Shown here one piece after another: positions 3,471-6,858 of a stretch of DNA of 15,824 nucleotides (the first letter of the stretch is position 1; every line of letters begins with the position of its first letter). Under the pieces are notes generated by a model. It searched no databases and was not told where the DNA came from. It saw only the letters and a list, made by a program, of their open reading frames with translations. Where the stretch lies: the IMG/VR virus record IMGVR_UViG_2663763282_000011; one strand, written 5' to 3'. The translations under genes and the position numbers were made by a program. Source of the stretch: a virus. Lineage: Duplodnaviria > Heunggongvirae > Uroviricota > Caudoviricetes.

Positions 3471-3770
3471 ATGAAACTTAAATATTCTGGCTTAACTGCC
3501 AGTGGCAACACTCACCCTAAATTTACGCGCGGTGATATTTACCGCGACCAGTACGGCGGCATGGTAACGATTAAAGGCGTGGCAGAACGGCGCATCACCT
3601 ACCGCCGTGAAGGTTACGAATATGATTGCGTGATGCCTGTTTATCAATTCCGGCGTGATTTCACGCTGGTACAGGCAGCGCCCCGCAGTAAACCAACCAG
3701 CAGGGAGAAAGCACGCGCCAATATTCAGGAAATAAAAAAGATGCTTAACGTATTCAGGGGTAAAAAATGA
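3471..3770 (+). CDS. Hypothetical protein, 99 aa, translationally coupled to the primase
   Basis: GGAGA SD upstream; its stop overlaps the primase start (ATGA at 3767-3770). Confidence 0.55.
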   Translation: MKLKYSGLTASGNTHPKFTRGDIYRDQYGGMVTIKGVAERRITYRREGYEYDCVMPVYQFRRDFTLVQAAPRSKPTSREKARANIQEIKKMLNVFRGKK

Positions 3771-5515
3771 AACTGGCACCGAACGTAAAAAAACAGCCAC
3801 GCGGAATAAAACACAAAGACACAGAGGTAATTATCTTTGCGGGTAGTGATGCCTGGTCGCACGCGAAACAATGGCAGGAGCAGGATGGCCCCGCATCCGG
3901 CGATAATGTGCCGCCTGTGTGGCTTGGGCCAAATCAGCTTGCCGAACTTGATGCACTGAAAATTGTTCCGGATGGAAAAAAACGCGTAAGGCTGTACCAG
4001 GCCGGAGAACTGGATTTGGTGGAGACCAAAAAGATTGGTCAGAAGCTGGCGGCGGCAGATATTCAGGACGCAAATTTTTACCCCGAAGGAATGCACGTCC
4101 AGAAGTGTGAAAACTGGCGGCGCTATCTGAATGCTGAGCGTGAAAATATTGCCGCAGGGCTTACCATGCCGGAGCAGAAAAATACGCAACTGGCACAAAT
4201 GGCAGACAGTGAGCGCGCGCAGCTGCTTGCCGAGCGCTTTGATGGCGTTTGTGTGCATCAGGAAAGTGAAATCGTTCACGTATGGCGCGGCGGGGTATGG
4301 TGTCCGGTCAGCACAATGGAACTTAGCCGCGAAATGGTGGTGATCTATTCAGAGCACAGGGCCACTTTCAGCAAGCGCGTAATCAATAACGCCGTGGAAG
4401 CGTTAAAAGTTATTGCCGAACCAATGGGCGAGCCGTCCGGCGATTTGCTGCCGTTCGCCAATGGTGCGCTTGACCTGAAAACGGGGGAATTTTCCCCGCA
4501 CACGCCGGAGAACTGGATCACCACGCACAACGGCATTGAGTACACGCCACCAGCACCAGGGGAGAACATCCGCGATAACGCGCTAAACTTTCATAAATGG
4601 CTTGAGCACGCAGCCGGAAAAGACCAGCGCAAGATGATGCGTATATGTGCCGCGCTGTACATGATTATGGCGAACCGGTACGACTGGCAGATGTTTATTG
4701 AGGCCACCGGAGACGGCGGGAGCGGTAAAAGTACATTCACACACATAGCCAGCCTTCTGGCAGGGAAACAGAACACGGTAAGCGCTGAAATGACATCGCT
4801 TGATGATGCTGGTGGACGTGCGCAGGTTGTCGGGAGTCGTCTTATCGTCCTGGCTGACCAGCCGAAATATACAGGCGAAGGAACGGGCATCAAGAAAATC
4901 ACGGGCGGTGACCCCGTGGAAATTAACCCGAAATACGAAAAGCGTTTCACGGCTGTAATCAGGGCGGTGGTGCTGGCGACCAACAATAACCCGATGATAT
5001 TCACCGAACGGGCCGGAGGTGTGGCACGTCGTCGCGTGATTTTCCGTTTCGACAATATCGTTAGTGAGGCCGAAAAAGACAGGGAGCTACCGGAAAAGAT
5101 TGCGGCTGAAATCCCTGTCATTATCCGCCGATTGCTGGCGAACTTTACCGACTCTGAGAAAGCACGGGCTTTACTACTGGAACAGCGTGACGGTGATGAA
5201 GCTCTGGCAATAAAGCAACAGACGGATCCGGTTATTGAGTTTTGCCAGTTCCTGAATTTTCTGGAGGAAGCACGCGGCCTGATGATGGGCGGCGGTGGCG
5301 ATTCAGTGAAGTACACGACCAGAAACAGCCTTTACCGCGTCTATCTGGCGTTTATGGCGTACGCAGGCAGGAGCAAACCGCTAAACGTAAATGACTTTGG
5401 CAAGGCTATGAAGCCAGCCGCGAAAGTTTACGGACATGAATATATTACGCGGAAAGTTAAGGGAGTAACGCAGACTAACGCAATAACAACAGACGAGTGC
5501 GACGCGTTTTTATAA
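3767..5515 (+). CDS. Replication initiator: phage/plasmid primase-helicase (P4 alpha C-terminal domain type, SF3 NTPase), 582 aa
   Basis: Walker A 'TGDGGSGKST' and Walker B-like 'RLIVLADQ' read in the translation. Size and position (followed directly by iterons) match the PICI pri-rep gene. The N-terminal domain is not confidently assigned. Confidence 0.88.
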   Translation: MKLAPNVKKQPRGIKHKDTEVIIFAGSDAWSHAKQWQEQDGPASGDNVPPVWLGPNQLAELDALKIVPDGKKRVRLYQAGELDLVETKKIGQKLAAADIQDANFYPEGMHVQKCENWRRYLNAERENIAAGLTMPEQKNTQLAQMADSERAQLLAERFDGVCVHQESEIVHVWRGGVWCPVSTMELSREMVVIYSEHRATFSKRVINNAVEALKVIAEPMGEPSGDLLPFANGALDLKTGEFSPHTPENWITTHNGIEYTPPAPGENIRDNALNFHKWLEHAAGKDQRKMMRICAALYMIMANRYDWQMFIEATGDGGSGKSTFTHIASLLAGKQNTVSAEMTSLDDAGGRAQVVGSRLIVLADQPKYTGEGTGIKKITGGDPVEINPKYEKRFTAVIRAVVLATNNNPMIFTERAGGVARRRVIFRFDNIVSEAEKDRELPEKIAAEIPVIIRRLLANFTDSEKARALLLEQRDGDEALAIKQQTDPVIEFCQFLNFLEEARGLMMGGGGDSVKYTTRNSLYRVYLAFMAYAGRSKPLNVNDFGKAMKPAAKVYGHEYITRKVKGVTQTNAITTDECDAFL

Positions 5516-5530
5516 TTTTTTGTAATTGCT

Positions 5531-5765
5531 GTCTACCCTGTCTACCTGAGTAAAGAAAAATACATTTAATTCAGTGCATTAAGTTAGGTAGATAGCCTTT
5601 TTTTACTGTCTACCCACTATCTACCCTCTCTACCTGATTTTACCTGAATCAGACAGGGAGGTAGACACGGGGTAGATAGTGGATAAAAGCACTCTACCCC
5701 GCTGAAAGCAGCGCCATTACTGGCATGAGGGCCACTAAGGTAGATAAGGTAGACAAGGGGAGGCA
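5531..5765. repeat. Replication origin: iteron cluster of about 14 copies of a 7-8 bp motif GTCTACC / GGTAGA(C/T)A in both orientations, with an AT-rich spacer
   Basis: Read directly: GTCTACC at 5531, 5540, 5608; ATCTACC 5619; CTCTACC 5627, 5693; GGTAGATA 5587, 5671, 5749; GGTAGACA 5660, 5758. Lies immediately 3' of the primase/rep gene, as in PICI and SaPI origins. Confidence 0.75.
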
Positions 5766-5803
5766 CAACTCAAAACTTTTTAAACGAGGGGGTAAAAATA
5801 AAT

Positions 5804-6082
5804 ATGCACACTTCAGGGAAATTTAATAAATCATTCAAAAAACGCAGAGACAGAACAGAACCGAAATATCGCGCGTTAGACATGACAGAGCACGCTTTAA
5901 AGGTGGCAATCAGAACGATAGACCGCCACGCGGGGGAAGGATACGCGAAAGCACATCCCGAACTGATAAGCGCATTCATGACCACGACGGCGGCAAATTT
6001 TGCCACGCTGACAGAGCGGGAGATTGCCGAAGCGGAACAGGTAACAACAATCAACGTTAAAACCGGAGAGGTGGAATCATGA
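5804..6082 (+). CDS. Hypothetical protein, 92 aa
   Basis: GAGGGGG SD about 11 nt upstream (long spacing). First gene after the ori. No recognisable family. Confidence 0.5.
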   Translation: MHTSGKFNKSFKKRRDRTEPKYRALDMTEHALKVAIRTIDRHAGEGYAKAHPELISAFMTTTAANFATLTEREIAEAEQVTTINVKTGEVES

Positions 6083-6384
6083 GCGAACCAAAATTTGGTG
6101 AAAAATTTTACAAGCACAACGGACGGATCACGATTCTGCAAATAAGCGCAGCTACACCAGGCTGGTGGGTTGAAACAGACGAAGGATCCTCACCCGTGGC
6201 ATCATGGGAGCTTTGTGTGCTTAGTTACCCTGACCGCGATGTGTATCAGGATATTCTGCCTGTGATATCCACTGACAAAGGCATGAAACCCGTAGACATC
6301 AAAAACATGGGGTTTCAGTGCGTAATGCTCACTGAAAAAATGATGGAAGAGATGAAAAAGAACAATGCCGGATCGCTTCACTGA
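6079..6384 (+). CDS. Hypothetical protein, 101 aa
   Basis: GGAGAGGTGG SD; ATGA overlap with the upstream ORF indicates translational coupling. Confidence 0.55.
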   Translation: MSEPKFGEKFYKHNGRITILQISAATPGWWVETDEGSSPVASWELCVLSYPDRDVYQDILPVISTDKGMKPVDIKNMGFQCVMLTEKMMEEMKKNNAGSLH

Positions 6385-6393
6385 GGTGGCAAT

Positions 6394-6555
6394 ATGACAG
6401 CACAAATTGCAGCTTACGGGCAGCTGGTGGGCGACCCGCTGGTAAAACAGAGCAGCAAGGGCACACCGGAGCCGCCAACGGAGAACTACGCAGACCTGAG
6501 AAATGCAGTAAATCGCACTTACGCAGACATGGGGCTGAGCAAATTAGCAGAGTAG
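6394..6555 (+). CDS. Hypothetical protein, 53 aa (MTAQIAAYGQLVGDPLVKQSSKG...)
   Basis: GAGGTGG SD 5 nt upstream of the ATG. Below the ORF-track cutoff, found by manual translation. Followed by an intrinsic terminator. Confidence 0.4.
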   Translation: MTAQIAAYGQLVGDPLVKQSSKGTPEPPTENYADLRNAVNRTYADMGLSKLAE

Positions 6556-6610: not shown

Positions 6611-6858
6611 TAAATTATTTGTTCGTGGTTGTTCCACGTTGTTCACTGAGCGGATCGGCATATTTTACCCGAACTGAATCATGATTATTCTCGCCCGTGG
6701 TGCCAGGACGCTGGGGCCACTTTCCCGCCTGTTAATGTGCTCGCCAATATTCATTACCAGGCGGGAAAACGATCGGTGCGATTACTGATTTCCTTATGAA
6801 AAACGGTTGAGTGTTTGCCGCGTCCTGGAGTTCCTTACTTAACCCCAGGACTTTTTTT
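6611..6858 (+). promoter_or_regulatory. Control region of the capsid/packaging operon: TTGTTC repeats with inverted repeat CGTGG-N5-CCACG (6617-6646), 10-bp inverted repeat TTCCCGCCTG-N26-CAGGCGGGAA (6722-6767), and hairpin GTCCTGG/CCAGGAC plus T7 (6822-6858) abutting the capsid ATG
   Basis: All elements read directly. A promoter-like TTGTTC-N16-TATTTT is present. Function is inferred. Confidence 0.45.

Follow-up and report, generated by a model that had tools for sequence, protein, structure and literature searches.

The DNA analyzed here, called the window throughout, is a stretch of 15,824 nucleotides from a viral record classed within the Caudoviricetes (IMG/VR record IMGVR_UViG_2663763282_000011). 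It opens with a tyrosine integrase gene (1-1230), followed by small open reading frames (ORFs), a DUF4222 gene, a gene for a 582-residue protein annotated as a 'P4-family primase' (3767-5515, + strand), which is the Pri-Rep of Escherichia coli phage-inducible chromosomal islands (PICIs) and is referred to below as the initiator, and an intergenic region (5516-5803) that begins 1 nt past the stop codon of this gene (5513-5515). One ORF (1605-1793) equals the annotated AlpA gene of a related island, L001, in size and position. The right half encodes an HK97-type capsid, a prohead protease, a portal, head-completion and connector proteins, an HNH endonuclease and a large terminase (TerL); tail genes are absent, and the terminase gene is followed by the host gene phoQ. 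Because of this gene content, we assign the window to a capsid-forming PICI (cf-PICI) located between roxA and phoQ of E. coli/Shigella. In this report we examine the intergenic region, which a sequence-only reading had proposed as an iteron-type replication origin (ori) of the kind found in PICIs and in the Staphylococcus aureus pathogenicity islands (SaPIs).

The 288-bp intergenic region contains a 226-bp array (5530-5755) of short sites, or iterons, built on the hexamer TCTACC. Counted on both strands, the hexamer occurs 13 times in the window, with 11 copies within 5532-5753 and only two, at 750 and 15332, in the remaining 15.6 kb, whereas dinucleotide-preserving shuffles of the whole 15.8-kb window gave a mean of 3.74 copies and a maximum of 9. 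The longer 9-mer YNTCTACCY, which extends the core by a base at either end and adds a pyrimidine rule, places 10 of its 11 window matches in the intergenic array, where 0.81 would be expected. The array thus occurs far above chance. At 8-mer length, TRTCTACC is matched perfectly by nine of the 11 copies; the exceptions are TCTCTACC at 5627-5634 and ACTCTACC at 5691-5698. The consensus of the array sites is YTRTCTACCY. The sequence-only reading had counted about 14 motif copies directly 3' of the primase gene; the cluster lies where that reading placed it, but the number comes down to 11, since 14 can be reached only with degenerate look-alikes, for example TTTTACCT (5639-5646) or TTATCCAC (complement, 5679-5686), which are not conserved as sites.

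From left to right, the sites are iteron 1 (TGTCTACC, 5530-5537, + strand), iteron 2 (TGTCTACC, 5539-5546, +, 9 bp after iteron 1), iteron 3 (TATCTACC, inverted, 5587-5594, −), iteron 4 (TGTCTACC, 5607-5614, +), iteron 5 (TATCTACC, 5618-5625, +), iteron 6 (TCTCTACC, 5627-5634, +), iteron 7 (TGTCTACC, inverted, 5660-5667, −), iteron 8 (TATCTACC, inverted, 5671-5678, −), iteron 9 (ACTCTACC, 5691-5698, +), iteron 10 (TATCTACC, inverted, 5739-5746, −) and iteron 11 (TGTCTACC, inverted, 5748-5755, −). Ten of these are supported by the 6-mer, 9-mer and 8-mer counts alike, with the core of iteron 1 also invariant in the E. coli allele alignment (A1); iteron 9 matches in the core only, through the hexamer count, and this core is kept in all aligned alleles. 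The orientations run > > < > > > in the left half and < < > < < in the right, with start-to-start spacings of 9, 45, 23, 11, 9, 30, 11, 23, 45 and 9, which bears out the earlier description of forward copies on the left and mostly inverted copies on the right.

The spacings are symmetric about a dyad at 5642.5, which lies within a small palindrome, CTGATT / AATCAG (5635-5653; inverted repeats I1, I2 and I9), and on which a repeat finder centered two long inverted repeats (I1 and I2). When the right arm (5660-5755) is reverse-complemented, its five sites fall at the same offsets as the first five sites of the left arm; between the arms, the core sequences are 100% identical and the rest 38%. 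The first 45-bp interval of the array forms an A+T-rich spacer (5547-5586), a candidate DNA-unwinding element, with two sites on its left and nine on its right, those that flank it facing each other. At 77% A+T against 48% for the whole window, the spacer falls within the least stable 0.2% of the window in 30-bp nearest-neighbor duplex stability, in agreement with the A+T-rich stretch that had been noticed at 5551-5585, and its sequence varies between alleles with its A+T richness kept. Outside the array, a T-tract of low duplex stability (5507-5521), which overlaps the pri stop codon and belongs to the pair of 30-bp windows with the lowest stability near ori, is mirrored on the right by an A/T tract (5771-5785).

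The conservation of the region follows the sites. Among ten E. coli alleles, with identities down to about 78%, 55 of the 66 core columns are invariant compared with 48 of the 192 other intergenic columns (Fisher p = 5e-17), and in Rosenbergiella, Xenorhabdus, Symbiopectobacterium, Raoultella and Yersinia, where the spacers are partly unalignable, the position and orientation of the sites are kept. This pattern indicates that selection acts on the sites and not on the sequence as such. The 500 bp around the array are present in 602 of 5,426 complete E. coli genomes, chromosomal in every case. At position 5711, the window carries an A where all other alleles have a C.

Evidence for the function of the region comes from its ortholog in EcCICFT073, the PICI found at this roxA/phoQ site in E. 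coli CFT073. The Pri-Rep of EcCICFT073 is 90% identical to the window initiator and identical over residues 486-575, and the intergenic region that follows it (L010 13997-14284) is ~96% identical, aligned without rearrangement and with 11 of 11 cores in place, differing by a few point substitutions such as the A at 5711. E. coli PICI origins have been described (Fillol-Salom et al. 2018, ISME J, PMC6092414) as lying directly 3' of pri-rep and consisting of iterons on either side of an A+T-rich region. In that study, which compared pri-ori, pri-delta-ori and delta-pri-ori constructs on the thermosensitive plasmid pKO3-blue, colonies formed at 44 C with the EcCICFT073 pri-ori fragment, failed to form with the rep mutant and were significantly fewer in number when ori was deleted (PMC6092414). 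Mapping of the published primers put the end of the delta-ori construct 4 nt beyond the stop codon of pri (L010 13980-14000, an exact match) and that of the ori construct ~24 nt inside the next ORF, so that the ori as tested is the equivalent of window positions 5520-5827. The replication experiment proposed in the sequence-only reading, in which the cloned fragment would be maintained by the initiator supplied in trans, has therefore in essence already been done, because a near-identical pri-ori was tested, although in cis and on the EcCICFT073 ortholog.

The window shares with EcCICFT073 the roxA/phoQ attachment site, an ori 3' of pri-rep, the 11 sites and an identical origin-binding domain; the two differ in their right halves, EcCICFT073 carrying capsid and decoration homologs together with phage cos sites, and the window a module of capsid, protease, portal, HNH and TerL genes. 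Three features of Gram-negative PICI origins (Fillol-Salom et al. 2018) are found here: the location 3' of pri-rep in an int-alpA-pri island, iterons that flank A+T-rich DNA, and orthology to a known origin. We conclude that 5516-5803 is very probably the vegetative replication origin of the island, as the sequence-only reading had it. As a class and as an allele, this origin is already known, the orthologous EcCICFT073 origin having been mapped and tested in 2018.

The protein encoded next to the origin is a credible origin-binding helicase, as judged from its homology to P4 alpha, 1KA8 and 7OLA. Its Pfam domains are D5_N, DUF5906 (a superfamily 3, or SF3, helicase) and Pox_D5; residues 141-577 align with residues 326-762 of P4 alpha at 40% identity (E = 2e-109), and the D5_N/ATPase region (residues 176-430) matches the SaPI5 PriRep structure 7OLA (E = 6.5e-16). 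At the C-terminus, a putative origin-binding, winged-helix domain (residues 486-582; 5222-5512, + strand) contains a phmmer match to PDB entry 1KA8 (residues 486-577, E = 7.3e-7), whose chain covers the C-terminal part of P4 alpha, described in the literature as the origin-binding winged-helix domain of that protein. The same protein is found with 100% identity in Shigella flexneri SFBU1023.

The N-terminal part of the initiator is another matter. The zinc finger and the TOPRIM domain with its EGYATA motif, which make up residues 1-325 of P4 alpha, have no counterpart in the initiator, the first 140 residues of which (3767-4186, + strand) have zero Pfam matches and zero PDB sequence matches and reach an hhalign probability of only 1.6% against the alpha primase region. 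These residues are predicted to adopt a TOPRIM-like fold that lacks a zinc finger, with the canonical acidic motifs, the glutamate and DxD positions, not conserved across the N-terminal domains of the family. Conserved residues of the protein include E20, D28 and D46. The name 'primase' for the 3767-5515 gene is probably a misnomer, inherited from TIGR01613, since the match to that model covers the helicase part; priming by the 582-residue protein appears doubtful. Of the earlier statement that a primase gene lies directly upstream of the origin, the adjacency holds, but the label is doubtful, the gene encoding the helicase and origin-binding domains of P4 alpha without the alpha primase domain. 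The same N-terminal domain is fused to RepA/AAA_25-type (PF13481) helicases in two database proteins (P0052 and P0077), and it thus seems to behave as a movable module that pairs with differing replicative helicases.

A wider comparison took in 80 bacterial loci that encode relatives of the initiator, together with the induced element vB_KppS-Ant, over the 450 bp 3' of the gene. Most of them have a repeated short motif in this interval, and the motifs fall into several classes: TCTACC, TTCACC (the core of the P4 octamer), GTGTTCAT, GTATACC, CCTACC, GTCACT and GGACAGT. Where the initiators are 40-60% identical, the layout is retained and TGTTCACC, GTGTTCAT, GTATACC or others stand in place of the window octamer; the eleven-site layout of the window, written in TGTTCACC, recurs in vB_KppS-Ant and in islands of Klebsiella, Raoultella, Kluyvera, Citrobacter and Pectobacterium. 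Pairs that share a site class are 59% identical in the origin-binding domain and pairs of different classes 41%, compared with 60% and 54% in the helicase, these pairs not being phylogenetically independent. Individual loci follow the same trend: L014, L016, L017 and L018 are 61-63% identical to the window in the helicase, only 31-34% in the domain, and have different sites, whereas L075 and L076 are 45% identical in the helicase, about 52% in the domain, and have the same sites. We regard this as supporting evidence, not proof, that it is with the origin-binding domain, and not with the helicase, that the site class changes. Many relatives from Xenorhabdus and Photorhabdus (L034-L065) show no clear repeated 6-mer in the 450 bp 3' of the gene, and their origins may lie elsewhere or have longer, degenerate sites; several copies of the initiator occur in single genomes, for example in X. 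innexi and X. yunnanensis.

Several observations weigh against our interpretation and set limits to it. In the published experiment, the ori deletion caused a significant fall in colony counts and did not abolish colonies (PMC6092414). For the exact sequence in the window, the case is built on orthology and sequence comparison, replication having been demonstrated on the ortholog. The correspondence between domain and sites is also imperfect: two loci, L027 (Escherichia ruysiae) and L074 (Kluyvera georgiana), combine GTCTAC sites with a TTCACC-type origin-binding domain, and Aeromonas loci combine similar domains with different repeats. Finally, the island looks partly decayed, with a nonsense codon in its capsid gene and a remnant of an SSB (single-stranded DNA-binding protein) gene, and use of the origin in the present host may have been lost. 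In the domains of L027 and L074, the C-terminal wing is longer by five inserted residues (GPDKG), a candidate for a natural specificity switch.

The arrangement of the sites is best understood in relation to phage P4, on whose ori, crr and alpha Calendar, Lanka, Ziegelin and others are reported to have done the classical work. In the P4 GenBank record (NC_001609), the ori core is annotated with six type-I octamers and crr with ten, the latter element lying directly 3' of the alpha gene as the window array lies 3' of pri. In the orientation of alpha, the P4 ori core reads > 10 > 43 < 22 > 11 > 10 >, with a long spacer of 83% A+T; the left arm of the window (5530-5634) reads > 9 > 45 < 23 > 11 > 9 >, with a long spacer of 77% A+T. 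P4 sites have the consensus CTGTTCACC and window sites CTGTCTACC, and the window octamer TGTCTACC differs from the P4 type-I octamer TGTTCACC in two central bases, the layout being the same site for site. Since the layout of the P4 ori core recurs in the left arm and the right arm mirrors the left, we read the origin as a P4-ori-like module duplicated in inverted orientation and bounded on each outer side by A/T tracts.

These elements suggest the following mechanism. Induction of the island by a helper phage would lead to transcription of the operon that contains the 582-residue initiator, whose C-terminal winged helix, homologous to the origin-binding domain of P4 alpha, would bind the eleven 8-bp sites; those sites that lie 9-11 bp apart would be on one face of the helix, and the two inverted P4-ori-like arms would place the bound protomers around the dyad at 5642.5. 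The protomers would then form hexameric helicase rings of the SF3 type, probably with a single ring on each arm and head to head, the A+T-rich spacer (5547-5586) and/or the flanking A/T tracts would melt, and the excised circle would be replicated. Primers would probably come from host DnaG or from an unrecognized activity of the N-terminal TOPRIM-like domain, since the alpha-type zinc-finger/TOPRIM primase has no recognizable active form in this protein. The contacts between domain and sites, the loading of a double hexamer, the place of melting and the source of primers are inferred by analogy with P4 alpha, the SaPI Reps and the SF3 initiators of eukaryotic viruses, whereas the site cluster, its conservation, the homology to P4 alpha and 1KA8 and the orthology to a working replicon are established by the present comparisons or by published work.

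Other roles for the array are conceivable. As ori and crr are separate in P4, the array might bind the initiator as a crr-like, cis-acting enhancer or for copy control ('handcuffing') while synthesis starts elsewhere: it occupies the place of P4 crr, directly 3' of the initiator gene, and crr units share its '> about 41 < 9 <' module and its AAAACTTTT-type tracts. We consider this very unlikely, given that neither the window island nor EcCICFT073 nor L001 contains a second TCTACC cluster, that the left arm corresponds site for site to the P4 ori core and not to crr alone, and that the pri-ori fragment by itself maintains a plasmid (PMC6092414). An even smaller probability attaches to the repeats being operators of a regulator (AlpA- or PerC-type, or the initiator regulating itself) for the downstream packaging operon, with the region serving mainly as promoter and operator. 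The region does lie between co-directional genes, an invariant block with a ribosome-binding site does follow the array, and initiators often autoregulate through their own sites; yet a scan of 5300-6100 found no sigma-70-like promoter or terminator beyond chance, the site class tracks the origin-binding domain of the initiator, the layout is that of a known origin, and deletion of the region impairs replication (PMC6092414).

That the array always accompanies the initiator gene also speaks against its being a packaging site (cos or pac) for the island terminase, as does its presence in islands with different packaging modules or, in EcCICFT073, without a terminase and with cos sites mapped as separate elements. 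The island encodes its own TerL and HNH proteins, and terminase small subunits often bind repeated sites, but we give this explanation next to no weight. A replication origin that is bound by the adjacent initiator thus remains our interpretation of the array, and it has practical consequences. In annotation, 5516-5803 can be labelled rep_origin with eleven named sites, with the caution that the 'primase' name of the neighboring gene is probably wrong. The stereotyped 11-site dyad layout extends from P4 to PICIs and cf-PICIs across many enterobacterial genera, and the natural variants in site and domain specificity offer a ready system for studies of origin recognition by an SF3 initiator; they may also account for incompatibility or cross-talk between the replicons of satellites that meet in one cell.

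Further features of the intergenic region accompany the sites. The right-arm spacer is G+C-rich (42% A+T), unlike its A+T-rich counterpart in origins of the TTCACC class, and contains a conserved G+C-rich block, CTGAAAGCAGCGCCATTACTGGC (5702-5724), which reads CTGAAAGC(A/C)GCGCCATTACTGGC, is near-invariant in the E. coli alleles (alignment A1) and is recognizable in other genera. The block has no iterons and mirrors in position the A+T-rich spacer of the left arm; the cross-genus alignment revealed no consistent pairing for a hairpin in 5702-5724, and no promoter or terminator was found there either. To the right of the array, an invariant block, CAAAACTTTTTAAAC, followed by the ribosome-binding site GAGGGGG (5786-5792), occupies 5771-5803 (+ strand) upstream of the next ORF and is unchanged in the ten alleles. 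An Rfam scan of the whole window gave zero matches, so the window has no known RNA element. The sequence AGTGGATAA (5678-5686) agrees with the DnaA box at 8 of 9 positions but is absent from the other E. coli ori alleles, and we treat it as chance; an 11-mer, GTGGATAAAAG, also occurs just outside P4 crr (L012 ~4272-4290), probably by chance as well. The whole intergenic region (5516-5803) corresponds to the ori as functionally defined in EcCICFT073, as established by the alignment, the primer mapping and the literature cited above.

The first gene 3' of ori (5804-6082, + strand; 92 residues, phrog_1231) is a conserved partner of the module in related islands, in which a small ORF at this place is followed by a gene for a 140-residue SSB; in the window, an unrelated 101-residue ORF (6079-6384, phrog_27268) precedes a remnant ORF (6394-6555) of which the first ~25 residues match SSB. 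The HK97-type major capsid gene (6811-8016) is interrupted by an in-frame TGA (7684-7686); the two resulting ORFs, 6811-7686 and 7687-8016, correspond each to one half of the Pfam domain Phage_capsid. The TGA is probably a nonsense mutation, and the capacity of this cf-PICI to produce capsids may have been lost. Masked runs of N at 8612-8699, in the protease gene, and at 11191-11352, in ORF 11174-11467, leave both ORF readings incomplete. Compared with the window, islands L001, L003, L004, L009 and L010 have a common int-alpA-pri-ori left half and at least four different right halves, one with capsid and decoration genes but no terminase, one with a ClpP-capsid fusion, one with terS and one with a full HK97-type head module, a pattern that points to modular exchange at, or just 3' of, ori.

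Among known systems, the iteron origins of plasmids (pSC101, R6K, RK2, P1 and F) also place initiator-binding repeats beside an A+T-rich unwinding element, with the initiator encoded alongside. Plasmid iterons, however, are 17-22 bp long and mostly in tandem direct orientation, and are bound by winged-helix dimers or monomers of the RepA, pi or TrfA type that recruit DnaA and DnaB; the window sites are 8 bp long, mixed in orientation and arranged with dyad symmetry, and the neighboring protein, the putative binding protein, is itself an SF3 helicase, unlike the dedicated plasmid Reps, so we rejected a plasmid-type origin. The origins of SV40 and the papillomaviruses offer a further comparison. 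There, an SF3 helicase (large T antigen or E1) with its own origin-binding domain acts on short sites set in inverted groups around a dyad, with flanking A/T tracts, and head-to-head double hexamers are expected. The origin-binding folds and the site sequences of these eukaryotic viral systems are unrelated to those of the window, which makes this an analogy of mechanism with homology limited to the SF3 ATPase.

The SaPIs resemble the window in having an origin immediately 3' of rep, in which 6-12 short sites in opposed orientations flank an A+T region (PMC9371898), and in having a helicase initiator with a C-terminal winged helix and a homologous ATPase region (7OLA). SaPI Reps are self-loading helicases whose C-terminal winged helix binds the iterons without ATP (PMC9371898). 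By the definition given for SaPI-type origins (PMC9371898), the window qualifies, with 11 sites, an A+T region and at least two opposed sites on each side. The likeness does not extend to homology of the DNA-binding domain and sites: the C-terminal domain of the window initiator matches P4 alpha instead, only the D5_N/ATPase region is detectably similar, the sites of SaPIs, five or six nucleotides long, have unrelated sequences, and a P4-type layout has not been reported for SaPI origins. The form that the sequence-only reading called PICI/SaPI-type is thus correct for PICIs and in need of refinement for SaPIs, both the initiator and the layout being closest to P4 alpha and P4 ori.

With P4, the window shares 8-bp sites in both orientations and, at 40% identity, the helicase and origin-binding domain of the initiator. 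It differs in that P4 needs two separate clusters, ori and crr, ~4.5 kb apart, whereas the window has two inverted arms in one 226-bp block, with one iteron cluster per island and no second TCTACC or crr-like cluster in the window island, EcCICFT073 or L001; and alpha has a zinc-finger/TOPRIM primase that the window initiator lacks. The crr units of P4 also contain the '> about 41 < 9 <' module and end in AAAACTTTT-like tracts. The organization of the PICI origin has been said to be shared by no other known replicon (PMC6092414), and the primase-replicases of satellites have been published as analogs rather than homologs; for this lineage, our comparisons contradict both remarks. In the open-access literature, which does not cover the classical P4 papers, we found no earlier statement of a common PICI/P4 origin layout, and the recognition that the P4 ori-core layout is here inverted and duplicated, and that the PICI initiator is a homolog of P4 alpha without the primase, may be new to the literature, although we make no claim of priority. 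From this we draw a broader proposal, which we hold tentatively and place slightly on the doubtful side of even: the origin of E. coli-type PICIs and cf-PICIs would not be specific to PICIs but an inverted duplication of the six-site P4 ori core read by an alpha-type domain, in which the two distant P4 elements, ori and crr, would correspond to two abutting arms that load head-to-head rings; the alpha primase would have been lost, leaving a degenerate TOPRIM domain and priming by the host; and the site specificity would have been re-tuned repeatedly (TCTACC, TTCACC, GTTCAT and others) through the winged helix.
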